Shown here piece by piece: positions 3,854 through 34,635 of a stretch of 34,635 bases of DNA. This DNA is from Polyangiaceae bacterium (lineage in GTDB: Bacteria > Myxococcota_A > Polyangia > Polyangiales > Polyangiaceae), in the NCBI GenBank assembly GCA_013141295.1, contig JABFRG010001213.1, forward strand, positions 1-34,635, given 5' to 3'. The stretch's first letter is position 1. Every line of letters starts with the position of its first letter. A model generated the notes under the pieces. That model saw only the letters and a list, made by a program, of their open reading frames with translations, was not told where the DNA came from and searched no databases. The position numbers were made by a program, and so were the translations under genes.

Positions 3854-3854
3854 C

Positions 3855-4799: not shown

Positions 4800-4979
4800 G
4801 GGGTCGCATCCTCCGCCGCCCACGGAGCAACCAACGTGCCTTCGCCAATCCCCGAGGGCCGCGCGGATCTTGCGTGTCTACCCTGCGACGCGACCGTGAC
4901 GAATTGCCCCGCTGGGGCGACCGAGCGCGAAGTCGCCTGTGTGCTGGATTTCAGCCGCCGCTGGTGTAGACCACTGCCC

Positions 4980-6770: not shown

Positions 6771-6914
6771 GCGCGCTCGAAGTGCAGCCGAGGCGCCGCC
6801 TCTCCGCGATCGACACCGCTGTGCGCGGGGCCATCGAGGGGGCGGCGCTTCGGTTTTGTACCCCGCGGAATTTCCTGGATTGCCAGCGATGGCTCCAGCG
6901 TTGACACTCGCACC

Positions 6915-9237: not shown

Positions 9238-9253
9238 GAGCACTCCTCTAGCA

Positions 9254-10570: not shown

Positions 10571-12223
10571 TCACTTCGGACCAGCGAGCTCGAAGACGTC
10601 CCAGGCGGGTGTGTGGTTGTTCTCCGTCTCCGGTTGGTTCCAGAGATAGAGCGCCGGGTAGGTCTGCACCACGCCGCCGCTGACCACGATGGGCGCCACG
10701 TAGAGCTGCGGTCCATGCCCGGTGGCGTAGCGCGTGGAGGAGAAGACCATGAAGTAGTAGTCCTTGCCGTTGGCGCGCTTCACCTCCGGCGACCACTTGG
10801 GCCACGAGTTGGTGATGCCCGGGCTCTTCACGGTGGAGAGGCAGGCCGGCGGGTCGTTGGCCGCGAGTCGCGTCGGCGTGCCGCCGGCGCGGGGCACCAC
10901 GAAGACCTCGGCGGCGGCGTTGTTGTAGCTGGTGGCCGAAGGACCCGCGGGGATGCGGTTCATGGCCAGGAAGGCGTCATCCGCCGAGAACGTGGGGTAG
11001 AAGTAGTGGAACGCCGGATCGCTCGCCCCGGCGATGGCCGCCGCCGCGCCGCCCGCGCGATTCGTGTAGGGTACAGTGAAGAGCGCGCCGGAACCGGTGA
11101 TGGTACCGGCGCCGGAGCCGGGCGAAGAGGTGTAGACGATGGTCTGGCCATCGTGGCTGAAGCTCGCGGCCGAGGCGGCGTTGGCGTCGCCGGTGCGGGC
11201 CACGATGCCCCAGCCCTCGCCCTGGTTGGTGCTCGGGGCTTCCAGGTTGGTCCACACGATCTCGGTCTTGCCCGCGATGGGCAGCATGGTGAGCGCGGTG
11301 TGATCGCCATCTTGCCAGTGGGCCTTGGAGAACGCCGGCGCGTGCTGGTCGAGGCGGCCCAGCAGCGTGCGGGCACTGGCGGTGAGGAACGGGGGCTCCG
11401 CCGCGGTGCCGTCGAGGGATCGCAGGTTCACGAAGGCCGGGCCGCTGCCGTCGCCGGGGTTGGTGGACACGGTCATGGCCACGTACTTTCCGTCCGGCGT
11501 CGACGTGTGACACGCCACGCACGCGGTACCCGTCTGCGGCGGCGTGATGACCGTCTGCACGGTCTCGTCGCCCATGCGAAAGCCCTTGAGCACCGAGCCA
11601 CCGCTGGTGGTCCAGTAGACGACCGTTCCGGCGGCCGCCACCGGCGCGATCTCCATGGTGCCGTCGGCGCCGAGGAACGGGCCGGCGGTGATCTTGCCTC
11701 CGGCGTCGACCACCAGGCTGCGAACGCGCACCTTCAGCGTCTGCCCCACGGCCACCGCGGTGATGGTCTTCCAGGTCGCGCTCACCAACGTGTAACCACT
11801 CTGGCGGGTGTAGATGCGCAGCGGCGTCTTCTCGCCCGGAATGTCCAGGCGAATCTCGAAGAGGTTCTCCTGGTTCGGCGCCGTGAAGCGAAAGCGAGGA
11901 CGGATCCAGTTGCGCGGGATGAGCGAGCCGAGCTCCGGTTCGTGCAGGCACGGTCCGGTGCTCGCGGTGTCCTTGCCTTCGAACAGCGCCGGGGCGTTGC
12001 CGGGCACGTCCACGTCCAGCACCGGCTGCGCGAAGTCGTCGCGATCGATGGTGGGCGGCACCGGCGGTTCGGCCTCGACGCTCGCGTCCGGAAACGCCGA
12101 GGGCATGTCGGTGGTCGATCCGTCGCAGGAAGCGAGCGCCGCCACCAGGCCCGCGCCCATGGCCACCCACAGCGGAAGCGTTCGTTGCATCCATTTCGCG
12201 CGGCTACCGCTTCGGTCGATCAT
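10571..12223 (-). CDS. Secreted lipoprotein with TolB/PD40-like beta-propeller repeats and a CxxCH motif
   Basis: Track ORF 10571..12328. I prefer ATG 12223 (GGAGAA upstream), giving MIDRSGSRAKWMQRTLPLWVAMGAGLVAALASCDG (lipobox LASC). PD40-like strings: HDGQTIVYTSS, PDGKYVAMTVS, FSADDAFLAMN, WPKWSPE...YYFMVFSSTR. CVACH is encoded at 11507..11521. Confidence 0.65.
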   Translation of the reverse strand: MIDRSGSRAKWMQRTLPLWVAMGAGLVAALASCDGSTTDMPSAFPDASVEAEPPVPPTIDRDDFAQPVLDVDVPGNAPALFEGKDTASTGPCLHEPELGSLIPRNWIRPRFRFTAPNQENLFEIRLDIPGEKTPLRIYTRQSGYTLVSATWKTITAVAVGQTLKVRVRSLVVDAGGKITAGPFLGADGTMEIAPVAAAGTVVYWTTSGGSVLKGFRMGDETVQTVITPPQTGTACVACHTSTPDGKYVAMTVSTNPGDGSGPAFVNLRSLDGTAAEPPFLTASARTLLGRLDQHAPAFSKAHWQDGDHTALTMLPIAGKTEIVWTNLEAPSTNQGEGWGIVARTGDANAASAASFSHDGQTIVYTSSPGSGAGTITGSGALFTVPYTNRAGGAAAAIAGASDPAFHYFYPTFSADDAFLAMNRIPAGPSATSYNNAAAEVFVVPRAGGTPTRLAANDPPACLSTVKSPGITNSWPKWSPEVKRANGKDYYFMVFSSTRYATGHGPQLYVAPIVVSGGVVQTYPALYLWNQPETENNHTPAWDVFELAGPK

Positions 12224-12373
12224 GGCGTTCTCCAGCGCAGCGGCGCTCGAGCCGCGCGTTCGCGAGAGCGCCGTGAAACGCTCCGCAGGTCCGAGCGAAC
12301 TATACGCCAGCTCGCGCCTTCCCGGCACGAAGACCGTGCGTCGCGCAACTCTTACGCGCGCGCAACGCTCGCT

Positions 12374-14507: not shown

Positions 14508-15899
14508 TCAGGGAGCGGCCTTGCCGTGACCCTGGCTGTAGCCTTCCCAGGGAAGGGCGAGGTAGGGGAAGCTCGTGAGGTACGGCTTGTCGTTGCTGTT
14601 GACGCCGTCGCTCACGGTGAGCGTGCCCTTGGCGAGGATCACCGAGAGGAGCACGTCGGTGACGTCGGCTTGCTCCTTGGTGGCGTCCTTGCCGCCGGGA
14701 ATCGAGCGACCGTTGGGGAAGCTCGAGTCGAGGCCCATGTCGACGCGCAGGACGTCGCCGGTGGCCGCGAGCGGAATGTCGTGGCCGCTGGCGCGCAGGT
14801 TGATGGTGTCGATGATGTCGAGGCGGTTGTTCTTCAGCGCGTCGACGGTGGTCTGCGGCACGCCGAGGGCGGTGTAGATGCCGACCGCCTCGGCGTCGCG
14901 CACGATGACCGGGCTCAGGAAGTACGACCCGAAGCGCTGCACGTCGCGGTTGGGGCGGGTGCGGTTGAACTTGTCCTTGTCCTGGATGCCGATGAGCGCT
15001 TCGTTCACCAGCGGGAGACCCAGGCGCGAGACCTGGACCCAGTCGCCGAGATCGTAGTCCACGCCGTTGTTGCCGCGGATGGTGGCGCGGGGGCGGCTGG
15101 CCGAGGCCCAGATGCCCAGGGTGTTGTCGACGTTGGCGCCGGCGGCCGGAGGCTGGCCGTTGGCGGTGAGCTCGCTGGTGGGAATCTCGAGGGCGATGGT
15201 GTGGCAGTTGAAGCCGGAGACGCCGTCGGTGGCCTTGCCTTCGAGCAGGTTCGCGAGGTCGAAGGTACGTGCAAGATCCACGTAAAATCCGTCGTCCCGG
15301 GGGCCGGCCCACACGCGACCCGCGCCCATGGGGTTGATGAAGGTGCTGGCAAACGCGTCGGTGTATCCGCCCTTGAGCTGGTAGGCCACGGCGCTGGTGC
15401 GCGGTCCGATGTTCACCGGAGCCACCGGAATGTCGCGGGCCACCACCTGGCGCTTGCCGTTGGCCAGCACCTTGACGACGTTGTAGGTCTGCTTCTGCCC
15501 GGAGAGCTGGGAGAAGAACTCTTTGCCGCCGCCGAGCGGGGCCGAGAGATCGGCCGGGTCGACCCGGCCGACGCGGCTGGTCTTGAACTTGATCTCGTAG
15601 GTGACCACGTCGTCGAGGCTCTTGTTGCCGCGCGCCACGTGAACCTCGTAGAGCACGTCGTCGGAGAACTTGTGGAAGTTGGGGCCGCCGGAGGGCTCTT
15701 CGAGCGGGTTGTACGAGGCCACGACGTAGAGCTTGTCGTGGGTGCCGGGGGTGACCCAGGCCCAGAGGTCGGTGTTGTCGGCGGCCGGGTCGAACGAGAT
15801 CGACGGCGCCTCGCGGTGGCTGGACGCGCTGGCCACGGCGGCGAGCGAGGAGAAGGCCAGAGCGGCCACGGAACCGGCAAACAGATGACGAGCTTTCAT
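14508..15899 (-). CDS. DUF4331-family secreted protein
   Basis: MKARHLFAGSVAALAFSSLAAVASA is a signal peptide. It is followed directly by SSHREAPSISFDPAADNTDLWAWV, which I recognise as the N-terminal hallmark of DUF4331. RBS AGAGGAAG lies upstream of ATG 15899. Confidence 0.75.
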   Translation of the reverse strand: MKARHLFAGSVAALAFSSLAAVASASSHREAPSISFDPAADNTDLWAWVTPGTHDKLYVVASYNPLEEPSGGPNFHKFSDDVLYEVHVARGNKSLDDVVTYEIKFKTSRVGRVDPADLSAPLGGGKEFFSQLSGQKQTYNVVKVLANGKRQVVARDIPVAPVNIGPRTSAVAYQLKGGYTDAFASTFINPMGAGRVWAGPRDDGFYVDLARTFDLANLLEGKATDGVSGFNCHTIALEIPTSELTANGQPPAAGANVDNTLGIWASASRPRATIRGNNGVDYDLGDWVQVSRLGLPLVNEALIGIQDKDKFNRTRPNRDVQRFGSYFLSPVIVRDAEAVGIYTALGVPQTTVDALKNNRLDIIDTINLRASGHDIPLAATGDVLRVDMGLDSSFPNGRSIPGGKDATKEQADVTDVLLSVILAKGTLTVSDGVNSNDKPYLTSFPYLALPWEGYSQGHGKAAP

Positions 15900-15912
15900 G
15901 AGTCTTCCTCTT

Positions 15913-16914
15913 TCACTTGCCGAGCACGTAGACGGTGCCGGAGTTGTTGGCGGAGCGATCGGCCCAGGCGAACACGTCCGCGCCCTTTGCGCGGTGGAGG
16001 CCAGCGGCTTCTTCGAAGTTGCCGAAGACGTCGGTGAGCAGGGTGGTGCTCTTGTCCGAGACCTTCACTTGATACACGGCGTCGGTGCCCTTGCCCGGCT
16101 CACGGCCGGAGATGAAGAGCGTCTTGCCGTCTTGCGAGAGCGCGACGCCGGCCGGATAGCCGAGGCCGATGCCGTCCTTGAACACCTCGGGAGCGCCGCC
16201 ACTGGCGATGCGGTACACCGCGGAGCCAGCCTGGCTGCGCGCGTCGGCCACGAAGATGGTGCCGTCGTCGGCCAGGGTGATGCCGCTCGGCGCCTCGAAG
16301 GGCTCGCCCATGGCGACCGCGCTGCGGCCTCCACCGGCGACGCCGATCTTCATGACGCCCACCCGCTCGTCGGCTTCGCGACCGGTGAAGTACACGGTGC
16401 TGCCCAGGACCTCGAGGCCGCGCGGCTGCGTCTTCTCGCTGCCCGCGAGCACCGCCGGCGTGCCGCCGGAGATGGGGAGGGTGAAGATGGCGCCCTTTTC
16501 CTCGTCCTCGCCGTTGTCCGCGCCGGAGTCGGCCACGAACAACGTCTGCCCGTCGCCGGAGATGGCGATGCCGAAGGGCGCCACCAGCGGAGCGCCGGAG
16601 GCGAGCTTGGTGACGCCGCCACCGGTGGCCGCAGACACGAAGACCGCGGGCGTTCCGTCGGCCGCAATGGCTGTAAAATACACTTTGTCGCCCTTGGGGT
16701 CGGGCGTGGCGTCGAGCGGCGAAACGAAGTCCGCAGAGTTGGCGGCCGGCGTCACCGTGAGCTTCTTGGGCTCCGCGTCTCCGTCACTACTGCAAGCTAC
16801 GACCACCGCCACGCTGAGCAGCGCGGCGCCTTTGAAGCTGGCGGCCCATCGTCCACGCGTCTTGCCCGAGCTCGCGCGATTGGACGTGGCGGCACGCCTG
16901 GTTGGTTTCATCAT
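15913..16914 (-). CDS. Beta-propeller lipoprotein (NHL/SMP-30-like repeats)
   Basis: Basic N-region, then LLSVAVVVACSSDGD (lipobox). Repeated blade pattern: KVYFTA, TLFVADSG, TVYFTG, TIFVADA, TLFISG, ADVFAWAD. GAGGAGG lies 9 nt upstream of ATG 16914. The gene ends 13 nt before the DUF4331 gene. Confidence 0.65.
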   Translation of the reverse strand: MMKPTRRAATSNRASSGKTRGRWAASFKGAALLSVAVVVACSSDGDAEPKKLTVTPAANSADFVSPLDATPDPKGDKVYFTAIAADGTPAVFVSAATGGGVTKLASGAPLVAPFGIAISGDGQTLFVADSGADNGEDEEKGAIFTLPISGGTPAVLAGSEKTQPRGLEVLGSTVYFTGREADERVGVMKIGVAGGGRSAVAMGEPFEAPSGITLADDGTIFVADARSQAGSAVYRIASGGAPEVFKDGIGLGYPAGVALSQDGKTLFISGREPGKGTDAVYQVKVSDKSTTLLTDVFGNFEEAAGLHRAKGADVFAWADRSANNSGTVYVLGK

Positions 16915-19697: not shown

Positions 19698-19820
19698 ACG
19701 ACTCCTCATCTTACCGCAAAAGTCGGTGCAAATCTGCGCACCTCGCGCGCCGGTCGGGTTCACCCTCTCCGGGCTGCCTGCGGCCGCCCGAGGTGCTAAG
19801 GTCGGTACCCGAGCGTCTCC

Positions 19821-21533
19821 GTGGATTTCGTCTACTTCGTCGTCCTCACTTCCGCCCTCATCTTCGTCCACGAGTTCGGACACTTCGTGGTGGCGAAGTT
19901 TTTCGGCGTGAAGGTGCTCACGTTCAGCATCGGCTTCGGGCCGAAGCTCCTGCGCTTTCGCGGAAAAGAGACGGAGTACTGCCTGGGCATCCTGCCCTTC
20001 GGCGGCTTCGTGAAGATGCTCGAGGAGTCGAAGCAGGAGGGCCCGCTCTTGCCGGAGGAGCGCGCGCGGTCCTTCGAGGCCCAGGCGGTGTGGAAGCGCA
20101 TTCTCATCGTCCTGGCCGGGCCGGCCATGAACCTCTTGTTTCCGATTCTCCTCTACACGACGGTCTTTCTCGAGGACCGCACGTTCTCGCCGCCGGTGGT
20201 GGGAACGGTGGAGTCGGGGAAGGCGGCTGATGGCAAGCTCATGCCGGGCGACGTGGTGGAGGCCATCGACGGCACGCCGGTCACCAGCTTTCCCGAGATC
20301 GAGGCCATCGTCGCCGGCAAGGCCGGCGTCCCGCTCAAGTTCGCCGTGCTCCGCGACGACAAGAAGCTCGACGTGTGGGTCACCCCCAACGACGAAGTGC
20401 ACTACCGAGAGCCGCGGGAGCTCGACCTCGTGGTGCACGCGGGCCGGGTCGGCATCTCGCCCAGGTTCGCGGCGCCGGTCATCGGCGTGCGCTCCGACTC
20501 CCGCGCGCACAAGGCGGGGCTCCGCACCTTCGACCGCGTGGTGGCCATCAACGGACGCCGGGTGGAGCGCTACGTCGACCTGGTGGCCATCCTGGCGCAG
20601 AATCGCGGCGACTCGGTGCGTGTAGAGTACATGAGGCCCACCGGGGTGACGGTCCTGGGCGGCCTCGCCGACATCGCGGTGGTCGACGCCGGCGAGATCG
20701 ATCTGACGCCCACCCCCAAGGACCCTGAGGCCAAGACCGACGACTTCGCGCTGCGAGAGCGCGACGTCATGGCGCGCATGGGCATCGAGAGCTCGGAGAT
20801 GTACGTCTCGTTCGTGCCCAACGGGTCCAGTGAGTGGCAGGCGGGCCTCCGGCCGGGCGACCGCGTCCTCACGCTCGACAACCTGGAGCAGCGGCGCTGG
20901 AAGGCCTTCATCGACGAGCTCGAGCGCAAGCCCAACGACGTGCACGCGCTGAGCTGGAGCCGCGACGGGCAAACCCTCTCCGGGCGCTTCCAGATCCGCA
21001 AGGAGAGCTGGAAGGACGACGCCGGGCAGCCCCACGAGCAGTACGTGTTCCGCACCACCCACTGGCTCCCGGAGGCGCCGTCGCGCTCGGTACCGAACCC
21101 CCATCCGTTCCTCTATGCGGTGCGGCGCGGTGTGGGTCAGACCGGCGACGTGGTGCGCTTCATCCTGGTGGGGTTCCTTCGCATCGCGCAGGGCCGGGTG
21201 AGCCTCGCCACCGTGAGCGGACCCATCACCATGTACGACGTGGCCGGTGAGGCGGGCGCAAAGGGCACCGCGGACTTCTTGTGGGCGATGGCCCTCGTCT
21301 CGGTGAACCTGGGGCTGGTGAACCTGCTTCCGATCCCGGTGCTCGACGGGGGGCACCTGCTCTTCTTCGTGATCGAGGGCATTTCGCGCCGCAAGATGTC
21401 GGTGAAGATCCGCGAGCGCGCCAGCCTCATCGGCATGGGCATTCTCCTCGCGCTCATGCTCGTCGCCTTCAAGAACGACGTCACCCGCCGCTGGGACGAC
21501 ATCGTCATCTCGGTGAAGGACGTCTTCAGCTGA
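19821..21533 (+). CDS. rseP: RIP zinc metalloprotease RseP (M50 site-2 protease with PDZ domains)
   Basis: GTG start. LIFVHEFGHFVVAKFFGVKVLTFSIGFGPKL carries the HExxH motif. PDZ-like PGDVVEAIDGTPV and LRPGDRVLTLDN. C-terminal NLLPIPVLDGGHLLF motif. Confidence 0.9.
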   Translation: MDFVYFVVLTSALIFVHEFGHFVVAKFFGVKVLTFSIGFGPKLLRFRGKETEYCLGILPFGGFVKMLEESKQEGPLLPEERARSFEAQAVWKRILIVLAGPAMNLLFPILLYTTVFLEDRTFSPPVVGTVESGKAADGKLMPGDVVEAIDGTPVTSFPEIEAIVAGKAGVPLKFAVLRDDKKLDVWVTPNDEVHYREPRELDLVVHAGRVGISPRFAAPVIGVRSDSRAHKAGLRTFDRVVAINGRRVERYVDLVAILAQNRGDSVRVEYMRPTGVTVLGGLADIAVVDAGEIDLTPTPKDPEAKTDDFALRERDVMARMGIESSEMYVSFVPNGSSEWQAGLRPGDRVLTLDNLEQRRWKAFIDELERKPNDVHALSWSRDGQTLSGRFQIRKESWKDDAGQPHEQYVFRTTHWLPEAPSRSVPNPHPFLYAVRRGVGQTGDVVRFILVGFLRIAQGRVSLATVSGPITMYDVAGEAGAKGTADFLWAMALVSVNLGLVNLLPIPVLDGGHLLFFVIEGISRRKMSVKIRERASLIGMGILLALMLVAFKNDVTRRWDDIVISVKDVFS

Positions 21534-27596: not shown

Positions 27597-28316
27597 GTGT
27601 CCCCCCGTTCGATCCCGCTCGGCGTGCTTCTGCTGGTGGCGTGCGGTCCGGACATCCCGCCGCGGGCCGCTCAGGACGTCGAGCGCGAAACCACGGGTGA
27701 CGACACGCAGGCCCGCCTCGAGGAGGACCTCGCGCGGGTGCGGGTGGCCATGCGCGAGCTGTGCGGCACACACTGCGGGAGCGTGGTGCTCATCGCGGAG
27801 CCCGGCGTGCGATCCGCCGAGACGCGTCCGCAGGCGCCCGGCTACGCCTCGTTCATCGCCTACAACCCCCGAGCGCGCGACTGCGCCCGCCACCCCGACG
27901 CTTCCATCCGCTTCTATTGCATGGCGCACGAGTACGGGCACCACCTCGACGTCACCATGAACCCCGCGTGGTCCAGCGACGGATGGACGCGCGAGCTCCG
28001 CGCGGACGCGCTCGCCGGATGCGCCTTCGCGCGCGCCCACGTGTCGATGGACGGGATTCAAGGGACCCTCGTTCGGGCGGTGCTCCTCGACACGCCGGCC
28101 GGTCGGGCGCGCGCAGAAGCATGCGGCTCCGATGGAGCGCATCCGGGCTTTCGCTTCTCTTGGGACGCATTGCATCGCGGCGCGCGGCTCTGCAGCGAGC
28201 GCACGCCCACGCTCCCGGAGGTCGCGGAGTCGGTCGAAGCGTTGGCTCTGGCCGCGCGAAGCAGCTCCATCGAGGCGTTCAGCCGCGAGGCCGGGGGCGA
28301 CTGCAGCCCGCGCTGA
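27597..28316 (+). CDS. Putative neutral zinc metallopeptidase lipoprotein (short YpfJ-like)
   Basis: GTG start. MSPRSIPLGVLLLVACGPD has lipobox LVAC. YCMAHEYGHHLD carries HExxH. ELRADALAGCAF resembles the ELQADCxAG string of YpfJ-type peptidases. Confidence 0.55.
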   Translation: MSPRSIPLGVLLLVACGPDIPPRAAQDVERETTGDDTQARLEEDLARVRVAMRELCGTHCGSVVLIAEPGVRSAETRPQAPGYASFIAYNPRARDCARHPDASIRFYCMAHEYGHHLDVTMNPAWSSDGWTRELRADALAGCAFARAHVSMDGIQGTLVRAVLLDTPAGRARAEACGSDGAHPGFRFSWDALHRGARLCSERTPTLPEVAESVEALALAARSSSIEAFSREAGGDCSPR

Positions 28317-28378
28317 CCTTTGGGGCGAAATGTAACGGTGGCGTTATGACGCGGCTGTTCTGCGCAAAAAGTGCGCCC

Positions 28379-28407
28379 TTGATGCATATTGCATATGACC
28401 GTAACTA
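28379..28407 (+). promoter_or_regulatory. Candidate sigma70-type promoter with a tandem TGCATAT repeat in the spacer
   Basis: TTGATG (28379..28384), 17 nt, TAACTA (28402..28407). The spacer holds TGCATAT TGCATAT (28383..28396), which also reads as the palindrome ATGCA-tat-TGCAT. It is about 105 nt upstream of the SulP start in a conspicuously AT-rich gap. Confidence 0.3.
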
Positions 28408-28482
28408 CGACGGATTTTGCAACACGCCGGGCACAAGTGTCGGAATGCCCTGCGGTTAACGGCTATGTAATGATTGCGTATC

Positions 28483-28505
28483 CGTCATGTTTGCTTAACA
28501 TGACG
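28483..28505 (+). promoter_or_regulatory. Perfect 9-bp inverted repeat (hairpin or operator) 8 nt upstream of the SulP-CA start codon
   Basis: CGTCATGTT (28483..28491), loop TGCTT, AACATGACG (28497..28505). The ATG is at 28514. Confidence 0.4.
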
Positions 28506-28513
28506 CTTCCCGC

Positions 28514-30586
28514 ATGCGCGAAGCCGCCATCGAAAAATCCGATCCCGAGTCGACCGATCTCCGCGCGAACGCGCGCTCCATGGCCACGCGGTGGGTCGCC
28601 GGATGGCGCGACGTGCTCACCGGCAAGAGCCTCGTCGCGGATCTCCTCGCGGGCCTGACCGTTGCCGCGGTCGCGTTGCCACTGAACGTCGCCCTCGCCA
28701 AGACGTCCGGACTCCCGGCGTCGGCGGGTCTGGTGGCGGGGGCCATCGGCGGCATCCTGGCGGGGGTCTTCGGCGGTACCGCGCTCCAGGTGACGGGGCC
28801 CGCGGCGGCGCTCTCCACCATGGTGGCCGCGGTGGCCTTCGAGTTCGGCGCAACCGGCGTGGCCGCTGCGTGTCTCATGATCGGCGTCGTGCAGATCGTC
28901 CTCGCGCTGGTGGGCGCGGGGCGCGTCGCCAAGTTCGTACCCGAGTCCATCCTCGCCGGCTTCACCACCGGCGTGGGCCTCAAGCTCCTCGACCAGAAGA
29001 TCCCGGAGCTCCTGGGCTTCGACGAGATCTACCACTACAAGCTCATCGACCTCGCGGGCATGATGCACCAGCCGCAGTGGCTCCATCACGTGAGCTGGCA
29101 CGCGGCGGTCTGCGGCTTGGTGGTGGCCTTCATGGTCACCCGGCTCAAGGCGTTCAAGCGCTTCCCGGCCGCCATCATCGGCATCGCGCTCATGACCTTC
29201 GTATCCGTGTACCTGCACTGGGACGTGGAGCGCGTGGGACAGGTGCCCGGGAGCTTTCCTCGGCCTTCGTTGCCGCTGGTGGAGGACGAGCGGTGGTTCG
29301 ATCTCGCGGCCAAGGCGCTTCCACTGGGGCTTCTGGCGGCGGTGGAGTCGCTGCTCAGCGCCCGCGCCATCGAACGCCTGGCGCCGGACGTCCGACGCCA
29401 CCACCCGAACCTCGAGATCTTCGGGCAGGGGATCGCCAACCTGGGCGTCGGGCTCTTCGGCGGCATGCCGGTATCCGGCGTCGTCGCCCGCTCCGGCGTC
29501 AACGTGCAGAGCGGTGGGCGGACGCGCCTCTCGGCGACCTTCCACGGCGTGCTGCTGGTGCTGGCGGTGCTCTACCTCTCGCGCTTCATCGCTCAGGTGC
29601 CCATCGCCGCGCTGGCGGGCCTGCTCAGCGTGGTCGGCGCCCGGCTCATCGAGTGGCGAGAGCTCCTCCACTTCGCCAAGCATCATCGCATCGAGGCCGT
29701 GGCCTTCCTGGTATCGGCGGCGGGCACCCTCTCGGGGCACCTCATCACCGGCCTGGCGCTGGCGGGGCTCATTCATCTGGTGCACCGCTTCGTGAACCGC
29801 CACGAGGCGGCGCAGCAGCGCGAGCTCGCCGAGGCAAAGGCCAAGGGCACGCGCGCCATCGTCAAGCCGCAGGAGAGCGAGGGACGCAAACCCGGTCACT
29901 GGCAGGCGTTGCCGCAGCACCACAAGTGGCTCACCAACATCCAGGGTAGGTCGCTCCGCGCCAAGAGCGCCTTCGTCCACGAGAACGCGTCGGTGGTGGG
30001 CCAGGTGGTCATGCGCGACCACGTGCACGTGGCCGCCGGAAGCTCGGTGCGCGCCGACGAGGGCACGCCCTTCTTCCTCGGCGAGGACACCAACCTCCAG
30101 GACGGCGTCATCGTCCACGCGCTCAAGGACCGCCACGTGCTGGTGGCCGGGGAGCCCTGGGCGGTCTACGTCGGCAAGCGGGTCTCGGTGGCGCACAACG
30201 CCATCGTCCACGGCCCCTGCTTCATCGGCGACGACACCTTCATCGGCTTCAAGGCGGTGGTGCACGACTCGGTGGTCGGCGCGCACTGCTTCATCGGTCA
30301 CGGAGCCATCGTGGTGGGGGTGGAGATCCCCGAAGGGCGTCTGATTCCCAACGGCCGCATCGTGGACTCGGCCGACGCGGTGGCGCTCTTGCCCATGGTC
30401 GCCGCCCACCACGGCGAGTTCAACGAAGACGTGGTGGAGGTGAACCGCGGGCTGGCGGCGGCCTACCACGAGCACGACGGCACTTCCGCCCACGCCGAGA
30501 GAGCACTCGAGGCTCGGGCGCGCCCGATACCCACCGCGAGCTGGGACGAACGGTGGATTCCGCAGACGGACAAGGAGCGATTCTGA
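28514..30586 (+). CDS. SulP-family anion transporter fused to a Cam-type gamma-carbonic anhydrase domain (no STAS domain)
   Basis: 690 aa. The SulP core carries DLLAGLTVAAVALPLNVALAKTSGLP and FGGTALQVTGPAAALSTMV across about 440 aa of hydrophobic helices. After a charged linker the C-terminus reads VRADEGTPFFLGEDTNLQDGVIVHAL...WAVYVGKRVSVAHNAIVHGPCFIGDDTFIGFKAVV...EIPEGRLIPNG...FNEDVVEVN. That aligns from memory with Methanosarcina Cam. An alternative start is ATG 28580. Confidence 0.85.
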   Translation: MREAAIEKSDPESTDLRANARSMATRWVAGWRDVLTGKSLVADLLAGLTVAAVALPLNVALAKTSGLPASAGLVAGAIGGILAGVFGGTALQVTGPAAALSTMVAAVAFEFGATGVAAACLMIGVVQIVLALVGAGRVAKFVPESILAGFTTGVGLKLLDQKIPELLGFDEIYHYKLIDLAGMMHQPQWLHHVSWHAAVCGLVVAFMVTRLKAFKRFPAAIIGIALMTFVSVYLHWDVERVGQVPGSFPRPSLPLVEDERWFDLAAKALPLGLLAAVESLLSARAIERLAPDVRRHHPNLEIFGQGIANLGVGLFGGMPVSGVVARSGVNVQSGGRTRLSATFHGVLLVLAVLYLSRFIAQVPIAALAGLLSVVGARLIEWRELLHFAKHHRIEAVAFLVSAAGTLSGHLITGLALAGLIHLVHRFVNRHEAAQQRELAEAKAKGTRAIVKPQESEGRKPGHWQALPQHHKWLTNIQGRSLRAKSAFVHENASVVGQVVMRDHVHVAAGSSVRADEGTPFFLGEDTNLQDGVIVHALKDRHVLVAGEPWAVYVGKRVSVAHNAIVHGPCFIGDDTFIGFKAVVHDSVVGAHCFIGHGAIVVGVEIPEGRLIPNGRIVDSADAVALLPMVAAHHGEFNEDVVEVNRGLAAAYHEHDGTSAHAERALEARARPIPTASWDERWIPQTDKERF

Positions 30587-31503
30587 TGGTGACGGGATTC
30601 TTGTTGGGCCTGGGCCTCTACCTCGCGTTCCTTGCTAGCCGGTGCTCATTTCGCGTGGAAGAAGGGCATCTGGGCGTGGTCACCACCTTCGGCGCCGCGG
30701 CCTTCGAGGGCAAGGGCGAGAGCGCCCGCGTGGTGACGCACTCGCCGGGCATCCACTTCAAGTGGCCGTGGCAGAAGGTGCTCGTGGTCTCGATGATGGA
30801 GCAGAACCTGGAGCTCTCCGGTGAGACCGGCGGGCAGCGCGCCATGGCCCACGACGGCACCATGCTGCGCTTCGACTCCATCTTGCGCTACGTGCCGGAC
30901 CAGGCGCGGCTCGGACAGTTCCTGTTCGGCATGAAGAAGCCGCTGGAGCACATCACCAACCTGTTCTCGTGCTTGCTGCGCAACGAGATCGCAAATTTCC
31001 AGGTAGCGCGCGCCCCCAAGCGCTCGCTCCCCCCGGCCGGGGCCGAAGGCGCGATCCTCTCGGCCCGGGACTTCGACAGTGAAGCCGGCTCCTACGCGCT
31101 CATTCGCCGGGAGCGGGCGCTGCTCAACGAGCGCATCGAGGACTTCTGCCGCGACCGCATCGCCGACCACTACGGCGTGCGCTTCAACGCCGTCGATCTG
31201 GTCGACATCCTGCCGCCCGACGAGCTGGCCGAGGCGCTCAACGCGGTGATCAATGCCCGCGCCGAGGCCGAGGCGGCTTACTTCCGCGCCGAAGGCGAGT
31301 GCCAGCAGCGGGTGCTCGGGGCGAGCGAAGGCGTGGAGATCGCCCGGGCGCGGGCCCGGGCCGTGGAGACCGAGATCGACACCCTGGGCGGCTTCCTGAC
31401 CCAGCTGGCCCAACAGGGGACGCTCGCCCCCTACGTAAAGCGTCGCCGCGCCGAGGCGCTTTCGGAGGCCCGCGCGGTCTTCATGAAGGAGGAGCGGTCG
31501 TGA
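30586..31503 (+). CDS. SPFH/Band-7 domain membrane protein (paralogue 1)
   Basis: In frame with track ORF 30553..31503. The ATG overlaps the upstream TGA (TGATG, 30584..30588), with AAGGAG at 30572..30577. N-terminal helix MVTGFLLGLGLYLAFLA, then FRVEEGHLGVVTTFG...PGIHFKWPWQKV and a coiled Ala/Glu-rich tail typical of SPFH proteins. Confidence 0.75.
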   Translation: MVTGFLLGLGLYLAFLASRCSFRVEEGHLGVVTTFGAAAFEGKGESARVVTHSPGIHFKWPWQKVLVVSMMEQNLELSGETGGQRAMAHDGTMLRFDSILRYVPDQARLGQFLFGMKKPLEHITNLFSCLLRNEIANFQVARAPKRSLPPAGAEGAILSARDFDSEAGSYALIRRERALLNERIEDFCRDRIADHYGVRFNAVDLVDILPPDELAEALNAVINARAEAEAAYFRAEGECQQRVLGASEGVEIARARARAVETEIDTLGGFLTQLAQQGTLAPYVKRRRAEALSEARAVFMKEERS

Positions 31504-32429
31504 GCGACAACTTGCAGCTGGTGCTCGGCCTCGTCGCCGGAGCTTTGCTTCTTCCGATCCTCGGCTTCCTCTTCCGTCGAGCCACCATCGAGGTGGAGGA
31601 CGAAGAGGCGGTGGTGGTCACCCACTTCGGCAAGCTCGAGAAGGTGCTCAAGACCCCGGGCCTGCACGTGCACCCGGCGCGCCTCTTTCCCTGGGTGAAG
31701 GTGCAGCACGTCTCGCTCCGGCGCGACTTTCGCCACATCGAGAACGTGTACGTGAACGACGCCCGCGGAACCACGCTCCTGGTGGACCTGTGGGTGGAGT
31801 TTCGCATCGCGGATCCGGAGAAGGCGCTCTTCAACGTGGCCGACTGGAACCGGTCCATCGTGAACCTGGTCTCCCACGCCGCCACGTCGATCCTCGGTAA
31901 CCGAGAGTTCATCTCGATTCTCGAGGACCGCACCGAGCTCTCCCAGCTGGTGCAGCGCGACATCTCCGGCGAGACCGAGCGCTGGGGCCTCAAGGTGGAG
32001 TTCGCGTTCATCCGCAACGTGAGCCTCCGGCCCGAGGTCTCTCAGCTCATCTTCGAGTCCATCGCTGCCCGGCTGGAACGGGCCAAGGCCGACATTCAAG
32101 AGACCGGACGCATCCACGTGGCGAAGCTCGAGGCGGAGACGCAGGTGCGCGTCTCCGGACTGGTGGCCGAGGCGAAGGGTCAGTATCCGGTGGCCATCGG
32201 GCACGCGCTCTCGCGGCTCAAGGCCCGGCCCGAGGTCTTCGACGCGTACAACACGCTCTACGAGCTGTCGGTCATCCGGCCCCACCGCCTCATCGCGTTC
32301 CGCGGGTTCGGCGAGGGCGAGCTACGAGCGGCCGACGCCGCCATGCTGGCGCCCCCCATCGTCGACGCGCAGCCGGCGCTGGTGAAGCCGCTCTCCTCCT
32401 CCAACGGGGAGACCCGTCACAGCGGGTAG
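31500..32429 (+). CDS. SPFH/Band-7 domain membrane protein (paralogue 2)
   Basis: In frame with track ORF 31299..32429. The GTG overlaps the upstream TGA (GTGA, 31500..31503), with AAGGAGGAG at 31486..31494. LVLGLVAGALLLPILGFLF helix, then IEVEDEEAVVVTHFGKL...PGLHVHP, WGLKVEFAFIRNVSL and an Ala/Glu-rich coiled region. Confidence 0.75.
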   Translation: MSDNLQLVLGLVAGALLLPILGFLFRRATIEVEDEEAVVVTHFGKLEKVLKTPGLHVHPARLFPWVKVQHVSLRRDFRHIENVYVNDARGTTLLVDLWVEFRIADPEKALFNVADWNRSIVNLVSHAATSILGNREFISILEDRTELSQLVQRDISGETERWGLKVEFAFIRNVSLRPEVSQLIFESIAARLERAKADIQETGRIHVAKLEAETQVRVSGLVAEAKGQYPVAIGHALSRLKARPEVFDAYNTLYELSVIRPHRLIAFRGFGEGELRAADAAMLAPPIVDAQPALVKPLSSSNGETRHSG

Positions 32430-32430
32430 A

Positions 32431-33249
32431 TCACTCGGTGGTAGCGCCATCGCCGCAGCGGGCCATGCGGGCCAGCTGCGCCAGGTTGAAGGCGGCCTCG
32501 GCGGGTTCTTCGTTCGCTCGCACCACGTGCGCGAGCACGGCGTGGGAGAGGGCCACCTGCTTCAGCTGCGAGAGCGACGTGAACGCCTGGTCGTCCTTGG
32601 TGCCGAGCTGCCCGTCGGCACCGGCCCGGTGCTCGAGGATGGCGTTCGCCACCCACCAGTTCATATAGGTGTAGGATGCACCGGTAGCGCCGAAGCCGAG
32701 GTGGTCGCGATCGAAGGTGTTGGCGACGCGGAGCATGCCGTCGGCCTCACGGCTCCCGTCGGCGATGGCGAGCACGCGGGTGGCGGAGTAGGGGTACGCG
32801 TAGCCCCGGTGCATGGCCACCGAGAGCAGGCTCTGGAAGGTGAACTGGTCGGTGATCCCGGGCTTCGCGGTCTCCCGCCGGAGCACCGAGAGGGAGGTGA
32901 ACTTGCGGTCGTCTTTGGTGCCGGCCTTGCCGTCGGCGCCGGCGCGGTAGGCGAGCATGCGGTCCACCTGCGAGGCATCGAGGAACGCGTGGTCGAGGTC
33001 GTTGCACGTCTGACCGGCCACGCAGAAGCCCAGCTCGGCGCCGGTGAGGGTGCTCGCGGCCTTCAGGATGCCGGCGGCCTCGGGGCTGTTCTGGGCGATC
33101 CCGGTGAGCTTGTCCTTGGCGACGAGCTCGCTCTCGGTGGCGTCGGCGTCGGCGTCGCTTTGGCCGTCGGCCCCCGCGCACCCGGCGAGAAGGCCGACAA
33201 GCGAGGCAAGCGAGGCAAGCGAGGCAAGCGAGGGCAGTGAGGCGCGCAT
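32431..33249 (-). CDS. Lipoprotein with an internally duplicated module reminiscent of ComEA-type helix-hairpin-helix
   Basis: C-terminal 272 aa of track ORF 32431..34344. ATG 33249 has AAGGAG 11 nt upstream. MRASLPSLASLASLASLVGLLAGCAG has lipobox LAGC. Two copies fit the pattern L+.A.T...LGF...A..+L..RAGADG..GTKDD..FTSLS.L. The HhH assignment is tentative. Confidence 0.6.
   Translation of the reverse strand: MRASLPSLASLASLASLVGLLAGCAGADGQSDADADATESELVAKDKLTGIAQNSPEAAGILKAASTLTGAELGFCVAGQTCNDLDHAFLDASQVDRMLAYRAGADGKAGTKDDRKFTSLSVLRRETAKPGITDQFTFQSLLSVAMHRGYAYPYSATRVLAIADGSREADGMLRVANTFDRDHLGFGATGASYTYMNWWVANAILEHRAGADGQLGTKDDQAFTSLSQLKQVALSHAVLAHVVRANEEPAEAAFNLAQLARMARCGDGATTE
33198..33233. 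repeat. Perfect 4 x 9-bp tandem repeat (CAAGCGAGG) inside the signal-peptide coding region
   Basis: CAAGCGAGG occurs four times in a row at 33198..33233, followed by a degenerate fifth unit. On the coding (minus) strand it encodes the SLA repeats of the SLASLASLASL tract. Confidence 0.9.
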
Positions 33250-33609
33250 GAGAATGGGAGCTCCTTGAAAGTGACCACGATGGCCGCACGCGGAACCCGA
33301 GGTCGGATGGGGGGCGGCGCGTCGTGGAGTGAAGGGGCATACGGAGTCCTCCGCCGACGACTTCCCCCCCGCACCGCGCCATCCTTTCTTCGGCGTGCTC
33401 GGTGACTCCGCAGCGCTCTCGGAGCCGCAGGCCGCGACACTGGAGTCGCCGTTTCCGTTGAAGAACGCAGGTGTTTCCTCGGCGGACGCGTGCGAAAACG
33501 AGCCAAACGCGCCAAGTAGCTCCGCAGTCGCCCCCGCAGGTAGCCGAAAACTATGGCAAATGCGCCAGGGTGCGGGAACATGCAATTCAACCGGGGGACA
33601 CTGGCACCC

Positions 33610-33625
33610 TGGCCCGACTTGTGCT
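33610..33625 (+). promoter_or_regulatory. Candidate sigma54 (-24/-12) promoter upstream of the IPT/TIG lipoprotein gene
   Basis: TGGCCCGACTTGTGCT compared with the consensus TGGCACG-N4-TTGCW. GG and GC are at the correct spacing, with 2 mismatches. It lies about 55 nt upstream of ATG 33680. Confidence 0.3.
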
Positions 33626-33679
33626 TTTCCATACGCGGCCTGTTTTCCCAACGAGCCGGTACCACTGGGAGACTCCACC

Positions 33680-34635
33680 ATGTCCGCCCGCTCTGCTCTC
33701 GCTTGCTGCTTCGCTGCCGTCGTCCTCGCTCTCGGGGGCTGCGATTCGAGCGGCACGCCCGACGATCCCGCGGATGCCGCGCTCTTCGACGGTGGCGGTC
33801 TCGACACCGGCAAGCCGACCCCCAAGCCCGACGCGTCCGATGGCGGGGTCATCGATCCGGACCTCGCGGAAGTGCCGGAGCTCACCGGCGTGAGCCCGCA
33901 GAGCGCGAAGGTGGGGTCCGTCGGTCCGAGCGTCATCGTCACCGGCAAGAAGTTCGTCGCGCGCACCGTGGTCCAGCTCGACGGCGCGGTGCTCGCCACC
34001 ACGTACATCAGCCCGACCGAGCTCCGTGCCACCATCCCCACCGGCAAGCTCACCGCCGTGGGCCAGCTGCGCATCTCCGTGGGCACCGCGCCTCCGGGCG
34101 GTGGCGCCAGCCAGTCGCTGCTCTTCGACGTGGTGAACCCGGCGCCGATCCTCACCGCCATCTCCAACCCGTCGCCGCCCAGCGCGCCGCTCGGTTCGCC
34201 CGACACCAAGATCACCGTCACCGGCGCCGACTTCGCCGCCGGCGCCAAGGTCTCCTTCGATGGCCTCGAGCTGGTCACCACCTTCAAGGCCGACTCGAGC
34301 CTCGACGCCATGGTCCCGGCCGCGAAGCTCACGAAGGCCGGCACCTACGACGTGGTGGTGAAGAATCCTGCGCCCGGCGGCGGCACGTCGACGCCCATCG
34401 TGTTCACCGTGACCAACCCCACGGTCATGCTCACCTCGGTCTCGCCCAACAACGCCGAGATCAACTCGCCCGCCACCACCATCACCCTCGGCGGCACCGG
34501 CTTCCTTCCGGCGAGCTCGGTGTCGTTCAACGGCGTCAAGCTCGCCGCCGTCACCTTCGTGAGCGGAACGCAGCTCAACGCGCAGGTGCCGGCGACCTCG
34601 CTGGTCACCGTGGGTGACTTCCCGGTGGTGGTGAC
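33680..34635 (+). CDS. Lipoprotein with tandem IPT/TIG-like Ig-fold repeats, N-terminal part only (runs off right edge)
   Basis: Absent from the ORF track because it has no stop in the window. ATG 33680 has GGGAG 7 nt upstream. Hand translation is MSARSALACCFAAVVLALGGCDSSG..., with lipobox LGGC. At least three repeats of about 85 aa follow, of the type LTGVSPQSAKVGSVGPSVIVTGKKF / ILTAISNPSPPSAPLGSPDTKITVTGADF / LTSVSPNNAEINSPATTITLGGTGF. Confidence 0.7.
   Translation, partial: MSARSALACCFAAVVLALGGCDSSGTPDDPADAALFDGGGLDTGKPTPKPDASDGGVIDPDLAEVPELTGVSPQSAKVGSVGPSVIVTGKKFVARTVVQLDGAVLATTYISPTELRATIPTGKLTAVGQLRISVGTAPPGGGASQSLLFDVVNPAPILTAISNPSPPSAPLGSPDTKITVTGADFAAGAKVSFDGLELVTTFKADSSLDAMVPAAKLTKAGTYDVVVKNPAPGGGTSTPIVFTVTNPTVMLTSVSPNNAEINSPATTITLGGTGFLPASSVSFNGVKLAAVTFVSGTQLNAQVPATSLVTVGDFPVVV

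Follow-up and report, generated by a model that had tools for sequence, protein, structure and literature searches.

A SulP carrier fused to a gamma-class carbonic anhydrase in place of STAS, and its conserved operon with two divergent SPFH genes in Myxococcota

What does an anion carrier that ends in a carbonic anhydrase (CA) have to do with the two SPFH genes that follow it? The question is raised by a locus in a 34,635-nucleotide stretch of DNA from a Polyangiaceae bacterium (assembly GCA_013141295.1, contig JABFRG010001213.1; hereafter the window), in which a preliminary description had seen a 690-aa open reading frame joining a SulP core to a Cam-type gamma-CA. Pfam and PDB matches bear out this architecture (Table 1), and the reading frame is real, with GC3 values of 0.92, 0.91 and 0.91 for the fusion, SPFH1 and SPFH2. 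The full-length arrangement is common to >120 protein clusters at 57-96% identity. Database labels for the three genes read only “SulP family transporter” and “HflC/SPFH protein”, and we found no published description of a SulP-gammaCA-SPFH-SPFH cassette.

Table 1. Features of the fusion-SPFH1-SPFH2 locus (positions in the window)
Feature	Position	Strand	Detail	Basis
Upstream intergenic region, putative promoter/leader	28317..28513	+	AT-richer than surroundings; contains TGCATATTGCATATG	
Fusion gene	28514..30586	+	690 aa; SulP core, linker, gamma-CA, conserved tail	
SulP/SLC26 transmembrane core	28514..29842	+	residues 1-443; short N-terminal cytoplasmic helix	Pfam, AF2, Foldseek
Linker replacing STAS	29843..29953	+	residues 444-480	AF2, STAS HMM, alignments
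Gamma-class CA domain	29954..30517	+	residues 481-668; left-handed beta-helix, then C-terminal helix 631-668	PDB matches
H535-to-H566 codon stretch	30116..30211	+	three predicted metal-ligand His codons	
H535, H561, H566 codons	30116-30118; 30194-30196; 30209-30211	+		
C-terminal tail	30518..30583	+	residues 669-690, ending W-D-x-R-W ... K-E-R-F-COOH	
Shine-Dalgarno-like AAGGAG	30572..30577	+	8 nt before SPFH1 ATG	
SPFH1	30586..31503	+	305 aa; HflC-like Band-7, N-terminal membrane anchor, variable insertion at ~residues 140-170	
Shine-Dalgarno-like AAGGAGGAG	31486..31494	+	upstream of SPFH2 GTG	
SPFH2	31500..32429	+	309 aa; stomatin/HflK-like Band-7	

The SulP core of the fusion is complete: Sulfate_transp matches residues 40-400 over profile positions 1-379 of 380 (E 6.6e-61, 206.6 bits), and in the AF2 model most of residues 16-443 reach a pLDDT of at least ~90. 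By Foldseek, the core has the same transmembrane fold as BicA, the cyanobacterial Na+/HCO3- SulP symporter (6ki1, TM-score 0.84), and SLC26Dg (5iof, TM-score 0.85), at 27-28% identity; unlike the myxobacterial fusion, however, those two proteins carry a STAS domain and have neither a CA nor an SPFH partner. In the fusion, as the preliminary description had claimed, STAS is absent. Pfam found no STAS match in the protein, and when ~190 fusion family members were searched, with all filters off, using an HMM of 102 STAS domains taken from the closest SulP relatives, the best E value was 0.19, as against 1e-35 for controls. Between TM14 and the beta-helix, the AF2 model has nothing but a disordered segment (residues 454-477), and the linker, first put at ~60 aa, is in fact about 37-40 residues long, with conserved G-x-R-A-V/I (R447, A448) and K-W-L (W472) motifs that form invariant columns in alignments A1 and A2. 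STAS, the usual regulatory tail of SulP proteins, has been swapped for a carbonic anhydrase in the myxobacterial fusion. SulP cores lacking STAS still dimerise, although they transport less well (PMC6497670).

The best PDB matches of the C-terminal domain were the gamma-CA domain of CcmM (3kwc, E 2.4e-42; 40% identity) and Cam (1qrf, E 5.7e-36; 46% identity), followed by weaker matches that included YrdA-type proteins (~1e-7) and the gamma-CA-like subunits of plant complex I. Pfam placed Hexapep/LbH matches at residues 551-617; a generic hexapeptide acyltransferase was nevertheless ruled out, as LbH proteins outside the gamma-CA group (eIF2B epsilon) scored 1e-2 or weaker, far below the CcmM and Cam matches by which the domain is assigned to the gamma-CAs. 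Cam of Methanosarcina thermophila and the N-terminal domain of carboxysomal CcmM combine a beta-helix with a C-terminal helix as the fusion does, and all three metal ligands together with E62, Q75, N73 and N202 are conserved among them. In Cam numbering, R59, D61, E62, N73 and Q75 correspond to R513, D515, E516, N527 and Q529 of the fusion, and D76, H81, H117, H122 and N202 to D530, H535, H561, H566 and N644; every one of these residues is invariant in 121 sequences of ~60% overall identity. With its three zinc ligands and catalytic residues kept, the domain is predicted to be catalytically competent, so that the fusion probably has CA activity. The proton-shuttle Glu84 of Cam is replaced by Lys538 and the acidic loop of Cam is missing, but CcmM, whose gamma-CA domain is catalytically active, aligns with the same two losses, so these need not be fatal to activity. 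What sets the fusion domain apart is its tether to a membrane carrier; it also has no RbcS-like repeats. In Cam, the metal ligands are contributed by neighbouring subunits, and since those ligands are invariant here, trimerisation has presumably been retained in the fusion. For the gamma-CA, confidence in the AF2 monomer model was only moderate (pLDDT 50-70 over residues 480-580).

Both downstream proteins match Band_7 (E 3.3e-19 for SPFH1 and 1.5e-21 for SPFH2), and a BLASTP comparison of the two gave an E value of only 0.034, which agrees with the initial view of them as divergent SPFH paralogues; a profile-profile comparison (96% probability, 21% identity over 265 columns) indicates that they are homologous, if very divergent. 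The SPFH1 orthologue profile matched HflC (E 1.8e-14) across the TM segment, the SPFH domain and the start of the helical region. In the AF2 model of SPFH2, residues 3-28 form a TM helix and residues 29-176 the SPFH domain, followed by a helix of 64 residues (178-241) and a second one (244-259); the C-terminus of the protein bears a conserved RPHR..FRGF motif. Foldseek aligned this model with full-length stomatin (1.9e-16), HflK (2.6e-15) and QmcA (1.4e-12), and also with prohibitin, the partners being full-length chains from cage structures. As modelled, SPFH2 has a cage-type architecture, with the N-terminal anchor, SPFH domain and long wall helix of the HflK/C-FtsH, QmcA-YbbJ(NfeD) and stomatin cages. 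Lys and Arg are nearly missing from the N-terminal flank (0.03 per SPFH1 and 0.27 per SPFH2), as against 1.8 and 1.4 directly behind the anchor. By the positive-inside rule this would have the SPFH domains face the cytoplasm, on the same side as the CA and as in QmcA, which is cytoplasmic in orientation. The argument is a weak one, as the SPFH domain begins with basic residues in every member of the family; HflC of Escherichia coli, which faces the periplasm, is also basic after its anchor.

The stop/start overlaps pointed out in the preliminary description, each with a Shine-Dalgarno-like site upstream, are present in the sequence: the fusion overlaps SPFH1 by 1 nt (TGATG, 30584-30588), and SPFH1 overlaps SPFH2 by 4 nt (GTGA, 31500-31503). 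The 80 species genomes that match best, from Myxococcota and one Oligoflexus MAG, all encode the fusion. In each of the 70 loci with enough DNA downstream, all from different species, the fusion is followed by SPFH1 and then SPFH2, so that the synteny on which the proposed module depended is complete among informative loci. Of these 70 loci, 52 retain the 4-nt overlap and 21 the 1-nt overlap; most of those without the latter have a gap of <=50 nt between the fusion and SPFH1. Even where protein identity is down to 45-60%, and in the Oligoflexus MAG, the cassette is still together; in an outlier that is 49% identical (P0124), an SPFH1-like N-terminus begins 2 nt downstream. The neighbourhoods of relatives held no further conserved gene, NfeD and protease genes included, as had been noted for this locus. 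We concluded that the cassette is a conserved family and constitutes one operon. The region upstream of it has hardly changed in the two closest relatives and matches neither a sigma-70 consensus nor an Rfam family; because its conservation is confined to close relatives, it makes a weak case for a promoter or leader.

SulP-CA fusions that keep STAS are differently placed. Fusions to a beta-CA, of the Rv3273 type, had rightly been said to be documented already (Felce & Saier 2004, as cited in PMC5489568 and PMC6458275), and where these two papers refer to them they are interpreted as bicarbonate transporters. They too are single polypeptides that start with a SulP core and end in a cytoplasmic CA, but the CA is beta-class (Pfam Pro_CA), core identity to the myxobacterial fusion is only ~35-40%, and STAS lies between core and CA in all 19 of the nearest beta-fusion clusters. 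In the Isosphaeraceae (Planctomycetota) we found SulP-STAS-gammaCA proteins of ~840 aa (e.g. P0135 and P0394), for which no describing paper was found; they share 41-51% identity with the myxobacterial fusion in the Cam/CcmM-type CA domain but only 34-38% in the core, and they retain STAS. A Band_7/SPFH neighbour was present in none of the six contexts of STAS-containing fusions (0/2 for beta-fusions and 0/4 distinct genomic places for the Isosphaeraceae). The beta and gamma classes, which are non-homologous, were fused to SulP cores independently.

The best reading of the locus, and on balance a slightly better than even one, is that of a hard-wired transporter-CA unit with a dedicated heteromeric SPFH ring or cage as its partner. 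The fusion would be a 14-helix SulP/SLC26 anion carrier in which a flexible ~40-residue linker and a gamma-CA take the place of the cytoplasmic STAS domain. CO2 and HCO3- would be interconverted where the carrier opens into the cytoplasm, which would amount to a covalent “bicarbonate transport metabolon”; a net flow of HCO3- in one direction and of CO2 in the other would carry both inorganic carbon and acid-base equivalents across the membrane. HCO3- is most likely the substrate, an assignment that comes from the fused CA only, because the core forms a long, isolated branch that lies as far from plain SulP-STAS proteins as from the CA-fused clades. As to direction, the “uptake” originally proposed is favoured no more than export. 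In the mammalian bicarbonate transport metabolon, which is debated, CAII bound to AE1 or SLC26A6 likewise places a CA at the cytoplasmic face of an SLC4/SLC26 anion carrier, but that association is non-covalent, whereas the myxobacterial one is a covalent fusion conserved in evolution. SPFH1 and SPFH2 would be made by coupled translation and are expected to alternate in a hetero-oligomeric ring or cage with its anchor in the inner membrane, the transporter-enzyme fusion being a dedicated client that is confined, stabilised or gated; the pair may now do what STAS, before its loss, did for assembly and regulation. HflK/C offers a parallel for a heteromeric SPFH pair, and for a transporter as SPFH client there is a precedent in stomatin, whose cages enclose AQP1 as well as UT-B, a trimeric urea transporter (PMC13041759); SPFH1 and SPFH2 differ from the known cages in being a very divergent pair, in having no NfeD or protease gene and in having their presumed client, an enzyme-transporter fusion, in the same operon. 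Of the HCO3-/CO2 module with an SPFH scaffold that was first proposed, the part that gains most support is the fusion as dedicated SPFH partner, given the complete synteny, the absence of any other conserved neighbour and the lack of SPFH genes beside STAS-containing fusions. Operon linkage is evidence of a functional connection between the fusion and the SPFH pair, not of physical enclosure; contact, corralling and a fixed stoichiometry would be further steps. Because two divergent SPFH genes follow the fusion in every related genome checked, the cassette is useful as a natural scaffold-client pair for learning what bacterial SPFH scaffolds do.

The SPFH pair might instead be an HflK/HflC-like protease adaptor that recruits or restrains an FtsH encoded elsewhere and controls turnover of the fusion, with no structural compartment. 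The closeness of the SPFH1 profile to HflC, the matches of SPFH2 to HflK (1e-9 by profile, besides Foldseek) and the database name “regulator of protease activity HflC” all lean this way, and in the literature that we consulted no bacterial SPFH pair other than HflK/C has a well-established client. We nonetheless consider this unlikely, given that both proteins fall far below the NCBIfam HflK/HflC equivalog cut-offs (56 vs 159 bits and 29 vs 134 bits), their order is reversed relative to hflK-hflC, SPFH2 is without the long N-terminal extension of HflK, no ftsH, hflX or hfq is linked, and the pair is predicted to face the other side of the membrane from HflK/C; moreover, strict 1:1 linkage with one transporter better suits a dedicated partner than a general protease modulator.

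Similarly improbable is a mainly structural or regulatory gamma-CA, serving as trimerisation platform or CO2/HCO3- sensor in place of STAS while the carrier moves sulfate, a dicarboxylate, chloride or another anion. Non-catalytic gamma-CA homologues exist, namely CcmM in some cyanobacteria and the plant complex I subunits that were among our weaker matches; SulP substrates are diverse, the fusion scores better with NCBIfam DauA (E 9.9e-56) than with BicA (6.3e-42), and its core has no specific kinship to BicA or to other CA-fused clades. Against this, invariance of all catalytic and metal residues would be unexpected in a purely structural domain, and the independent fusion of two CA classes to SulP implies that catalysis beside the carrier matters. 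Less likely still is mere co-transcription, in which the two SPFH proteins would form a general module for membrane organisation or stress and share the transporter's promoter by chance, since synteny in every informative locus and start/stop overlaps conserved over deep divergence are hard to square with it, as are the lack of any other conserved neighbour and the absence of the pair beside STAS-containing fusions.

A point against the best reading is the mismatch between dimeric SulP proteins and trimeric gamma-CAs. The C-terminal tail of the fusion, modelled by AF2 with low confidence and missing in the distant member P0124, ends in R689 and F690, which are at least 90% conserved among the 121 sequences, and may be a docking motif.

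The fusion core belongs to the SulP/SLC26 family (TC 2.A.53). In Pfam, Sulfate_transp (PF00916) matched residues 40-400 over profile positions 1-379 of 380 (E = 6.6e-61; 206.6 bits against a cut-off of 23.2), and an AF2 model built from 121 homologues (mean pLDDT 80, ~90 in the core) gave a confident helical core at residues 16-443, followed by disorder at 454-477. Examined with Foldseek, this core shows the 7+7 inverted-repeat, 14-helix SulP/SLC26 transmembrane fold, and its TM-scores of 0.84 to the transmembrane domain of the cyanobacterial HCO3− carrier BicA and 0.85 to SLC26Dg indicate that the carrier core is complete. The fusion scores below the curated NCBIfam cut-offs for both sulP (TIGR00815; 193.8 versus 380.45 bits) and BicA (NF050096; 143.8 versus 880 bits), and by these profiles it is a divergent SulP subfamily rather than a BicA equivalog. 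A C-terminal cytoplasmic STAS domain is typical of SulP/SLC26 proteins, though not universal. Pfam found no STAS match in the fusion, a custom HMM trained on STAS domains (102) taken from the closest SulP proteins and run with all filters off against ~190 family members reached a best E value of only 0.19 (positive controls, 1e-35), and the AF2 model passes from TM14 to the beta-helix without any alpha/beta domain. STAS is truly absent, and the STAS-less SulP protein of the preliminary description is therefore supported by all three approaches.

That description had also assigned the C-terminal domain to the Cam-type γ-carbonic anhydrases (γCAs), and this assignment was confirmed. In the AF2 model, residues 481-611 form short strands of the kind seen in a left-handed beta-helix (LbH) and residues 631-668 a long C-terminal helix, and hexapeptide/LbH models in Pfam covered residues 551-617 (Hexapep, 32.5 against a cut-off of 27). 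When the domain was compared with the PDB, the carboxysomal protein CcmM (3kwc; E = 2.4e-42; 40% identity) and Cam of Methanosarcina thermophila (5.7e-36; 46% identity) were matched far more strongly than YrdA-type proteins (~1e-7) or LbH proteins outside the γCA group (eIF2B epsilon; 1e-2 or weaker). A generic acyltransferase was ruled out because the CcmM and Cam matches lie far above those to other LbH proteins, and on these similarities the domain is a Cam/CcmM-type γCA. Across 121 aligned fusion sequences with a mean identity of ~60%, the predicted metal ligands H535, H561 and H566 (Cam H81, H117 and H122) are invariant, as are R513, D515, E516, N527, Q529, D530 and N644 (Cam R59, D61, E62, N73, Q75, D76 and N202). 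The proton-shuttle Glu84 of Cam is replaced by Lys538 in the fusion and the 10-residue acidic loop of Cam is deleted; the CcmM domain of 3kwc likewise lacks Glu84 and the acidic loop and is catalytically active. We infer a CA trimer with interfacial active sites only from the conservation of ligands contributed by two subunits. SulP proteins have a cytoplasmic C terminus and the linker of the fusion is rich in Lys and Arg, so the CA domain should lie on the cytoplasmic side. Beyond it, R689 and F690 of the C-terminal tail are kept in at least 90% of the 121 sequences although the tail is predicted to be disordered; the tail motif is absent from the distant family member P0124. We regard this tail, from its conservation, as a candidate docking peptide.

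Features of the SulP-γCA-SPFH cassette and of its surroundings
Feature	Position	Strand	Description
LigD gene	1310-3979	-	full three-domain protein: phosphoesterase, ATP-dependent ligase, primase-polymerase
DUF4331 protein and several long high-GC3 ORFs	14508-16064, 4185-8264, 8275-9384, 10571-12373	-, +, -, -	861, 497, 369 and 600 aa (ORFs)
RseP-like site-2 protease gene	19800-21533	+	Peptidase_M50 with PDZ domains inserted
Gene directly 5' of intergenic region	27597-28316	+	239 aa; lipoprotein-like signal (…LLLVAC); HExxH motif (MAHEYGHH)
Intergenic region	28317-28513		~200 nt, AT-richer; tandem TGCATAT-TGCATAT
Fusion gene	28514-30586	+	690-aa ORF
C-terminal tail, fusion residues 669-690	30518-30583	+	W-D-x-R-W…K-E-R-F-COOH, conserved in family
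Fusion TGA / SPFH1 ATG junction	30584-30586 / from 30586	+	1 base common to both
AAGGAG	8 nt upstream of SPFH1 ATG	+	sequence
SPFH1 gene	30586-31503	+	305 aa, HflC-like
SPFH1 TGA / SPFH2 GTG junction	31501-31503 / from 31500	+	overlapping stop and start
AAGGAGGAG	upstream of SPFH2 GTG at 31500	+	sequence
SPFH2 gene	31500-32429	+	309 aa, stomatin/HflK-like
Long ORF downstream of SPFH2	32431-34344	-	high GC3
Long ORF downstream of SPFH2	33275-34635	+	high GC3; weak TIG-domain match

Both downstream genes of the cassette encode Band_7 (PF01145) proteins, with scores of 70.0 bits (E = 3.3e-19) for SPFH1 and 77.6 bits (E = 1.5e-21) for SPFH2 against a cut-off of 23.6. The two are barely alike in BLASTP (E = 0.034); their orthologue profiles can nevertheless be aligned (265 columns, 96% probability, 21% identity). 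HflC is the best match of the SPFH1 profile (E = 1.8e-14, from the anchor through the SPFH domain into the beginning of the helical region), and SPFH1 has a variable insertion within its SPFH domain, as HflC also does. The SPFH2 profile matched stomatin (1.4e-16), QmcA (6e-14) and HflK (1e-9). An AF2 model of SPFH2 built from database homologues (pLDDT 81) comprises a transmembrane helix (residues 3-28), the SPFH domain (29-176), a 64-residue helix (178-241) and a further helix (244-259), and ends in a C terminus that has low confidence yet carries a conserved RPHR..FRGF motif. With Foldseek, nearly the whole chain aligned to cage subunits of known structure (stomatin, HflK/C, prohibitin, QmcA, erlin and flotillin), and as modelled SPFH2 has the N-terminal anchor, SPFH domain, long wall-forming helix and C-terminal cap segment of the ring and cage scaffolds; the profile alignments of SPFH1 to HflC and SPFH2 predict the same plan for it. 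The count of Lys and Arg after the anchors is a weak indicator of topology, since every member has basic residues where the SPFH domain begins. The N-terminal flanks of both proteins contain almost no Lys or Arg and, by the positive-inside rule, we lean toward an N-out, C-in orientation, which is that of QmcA; HflK/C have the opposite one.

Third-position GC is 0.91-0.92 in all three cassette genes, as expected of real genes in a window of 69% GC. Their junctions were confirmed in the sequence as first described, with overlapping TGA/ATG (1 nt) and TGA/GTG, and the grouping itself, first noticed in this single stretch, proved to be conserved in related genomes. A protein search recovered the fusion family as >120 clusters of full-length architecture (57-96% identity), which carry no annotation beyond "SulP family inorganic anion transporter" or "sulfate permease." We then scanned one genome per species and took the best 80 loci, which come from Polyangia, Labilithrix luteola, Cystobacter fuscus, Archangium, Sandaracinus, Myxococcaceae, three "Pseudomonadota bacterium" MAGs and one Oligoflexus MAG; in all 80 the match extends into the CA domain, and the closest to the window among the matches listed was the Polyangiales MAG locus L001 (98% protein identity). 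Synteny was counted where the downstream sequence reached 1.9 kb or more, which left 70 loci. In every one (70/70), the fusion gene is followed directly by an SPFH1 and then an SPFH2 orthologue, with order and strand unchanged. Of these 70 loci, 52 retain the 4-nt overlap between SPFH1 and SPFH2; the fusion and SPFH1 genes overlap by 1 nt in 21 and are separated by a gap of 50 nt or less in most others. Even on the short contig of P0124 (49% identity), a gene starting 2 nt after the stop encodes MNALILGVLFGAAGLLLFLASRSC, which matches the N terminus of SPFH1. Clustering of the ORFs of the 80 loci and the window region revealed no fourth gene conserved beside the cassette, to which no NfeD or protease gene is linked. 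The clusters next in frequency, Ser/Thr kinases in 17 loci and sigma-54 activators in 8, were rejected as members, being paralogues of families that are commonly expanded in myxobacteria.

To place the fusion among other SulP proteins, we searched its core against 1.8 billion representative proteins. The family collapsed into a few 50%-identity clusters, outside which the score fell sharply, from ~320 to 244 bits, the remaining relatives being no more than 40% identical. Domain typing of the best 150 representatives gave 89 SulP-STAS proteins, 34 with the core only (fragments included), 19 SulP-STAS-βCA fusions, 7 core-γCA fusions without STAS (the fusion family) and a single SulP-STAS-γCA protein, P0135, whose own family forms ~30 clusters in the Isosphaeraceae (Planctomycetota). 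A Band_7 gene was found near none of the 4 distinct SulP-STAS-γCA places and neither of the 2 SulP-STAS-βCA places, one of the latter being in the myxobacterium Vitiosangium. The absence of STAS and the presence of the SPFH pair coincide fully in our sample (70/70 without STAS versus 0/6 with it). In a neighbor-joining tree of 140 SulP cores, the fusion family sits alone on a long branch, at about the same distance (0.65 to 0.69) from all others, with no identifiable sister group. The phylogeny is therefore silent on the substrate, and we dropped it as support for bicarbonate, there being no sister group to name. The Isosphaeraceae fusions are ~840 aa long (loci L081, L086, L087 and L088/L089; proteins P0135 and P0390-P0418) and are called "SulP family inorganic anion transporter" by NCBI, which names the βCA fusions "bifunctional … /carbonic anhydrase"; we found no paper on this Isosphaeraceae family. 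Among the other relatives, P0140 is a core-only protein without STAS whose contig was too short to inform on its gene context, and P0148 (686 aa) joins SulP-STAS to a γ-glutamyl cyclotransferase-like (GGACT/AIG2) domain, another unusual SulP enzyme fusion.

SPFH cages and SulP-βCA fusions are known already, the latter from Felce and Saier (as cited in PMC5489568 and PMC6458275), and the cassette proteins are public, but under generic names. The Felce and Saier type carries a β-class CA (Pro_CA), whereas the fusion has no Pro_CA match and a γ-class domain. In the full text of open-access PMC and bioRxiv, we found no paper on a SulP-γCA fusion, no description of a STAS-less SulP-CA variant and no bacterial operon in which a transporter is paired with SPFH proteins. 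SPFH proteins occur widely in bacteria, but in the literature consulted HflK/C is the one case with a well-established client (FtsH), and deletion mutants often show no phenotype (PMC13086221); a recent survey names NfeD and hfq/hflX as their usual operon partners (PMC13086221). Stomatin/QmcA-NfeD operons have an adjacent nfeD, whereas there is none among the genes flanking the cassette in the window. The cassette is of interest because it offers a bacterial SPFH scaffold with a genetically defined client: evolution has tied two divergent SPFH proteins, a heteromeric pair, to one specific membrane protein, phylum-wide, and the scaffold-client pair is present in the cultivable strains L. luteola DSM 27648 and C. 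fuscus Cbf 10. The cassette would also be a natural covalent form of the debated "bicarbonate transport metabolon" and, with the βCA fusions, a case of nonhomologous CA classes recruited independently to SulP carriers.

We propose that the cassette would encode a transporter-enzyme unit and an SPFH scaffold dedicated to it. HCO3− is the most likely substrate of the carrier, at whose cytoplasmic mouth the tethered CA would interconvert HCO3− and CO2. Two unrelated classes of CA have each become fused to SulP cores, a pattern arguing that what selection favors is catalysis next to the carrier. Import with dehydration would alkalinize the cytoplasm or supply CO2, and hydration with export would rid the cell of CO2 while keeping the protons. 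Stomatin builds domes around AQP1 and the trimeric urea transporter UT-B (PMC13041759); by analogy, SPFH1 and SPFH2 probably alternate in a ring or cage in which the fusion is confined or stabilized. SLC26Dg lacking STAS still forms dimers by way of TM13/14, but its transport is poor (PMC6497670), so that there is room for an external organizer. The SPFH pair is always found with STAS-less and never with STAS-containing fusions, which suggests that an SPFH scaffold can assume the assembly and regulatory role of STAS.

Other explanations fit the data less well. Mere co-transcription has to be set against the invariant order of the cassette in all informative loci. If the SPFH pair were instead an HflK/C-like protease adaptor for FtsH, the resemblance of SPFH1 to HflC would be expected; SPFH1 and SPFH2, however, score far under the NCBIfam cut-offs of true HflC (TIGR01932; 29.4 versus 134.4 bits) and HflK (TIGR01933; 56.2 versus 159.4 bits), and no protease gene is linked to the cassette. 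The CA-like domain could also be noncatalytic or regulatory, on a carrier for another anion, but the invariance of its catalytic and metal-binding residues speaks against this.

For the scaffolded transporter-enzyme unit, the mismatch between SulP dimers and γCA trimers raised in the preliminary description is real. Given a flexible linker, the smallest closed assembly would be a hexamer built from three dimers and two trimers; networks would form otherwise, and their growth could be limited by a cage. A more elaborate version, which we consider unlikely, is that SPFH1 and SPFH2 build a closed dome on the cytoplasmic face, on the CA side, around one or a few transporter-CA assemblies, as a membrane-attached nanocompartment shielding CO2/HCO3− interconversion from the bulk cytoplasm. 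In this version, the cage would cap the open-ended networks that the dimer-trimer mismatch would otherwise generate through the flexible linkers, and the nanocompartment would act as a proteinaceous diffusion barrier, carboxysome-like in logic but SPFH-built and directly coupled to the carrier.

The intergenic region upstream of the fusion gene is almost invariant in L001 and a second relative's locus, L002, and may be a regulatory region of the operon. Simple scans of it found no sigma-70 consensus or Rfam family, and an Rfam scan of the whole window with promoter and terminator scans gave nothing usable. The 239-aa protein encoded just 5' of it has no Pfam match and is not kept beside the cassette in other genomes; it may be an unclassified secreted zinc metalloprotease. 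Elsewhere in the window, the 861-, 497-, 369- and 600-aa ORFs have no Pfam match at E < 1e-4, and LigD is the bacterial NHEJ ligase. Downstream of SPFH2, the two opposite-strand long ORFs overlap, and either of them may be the real gene.
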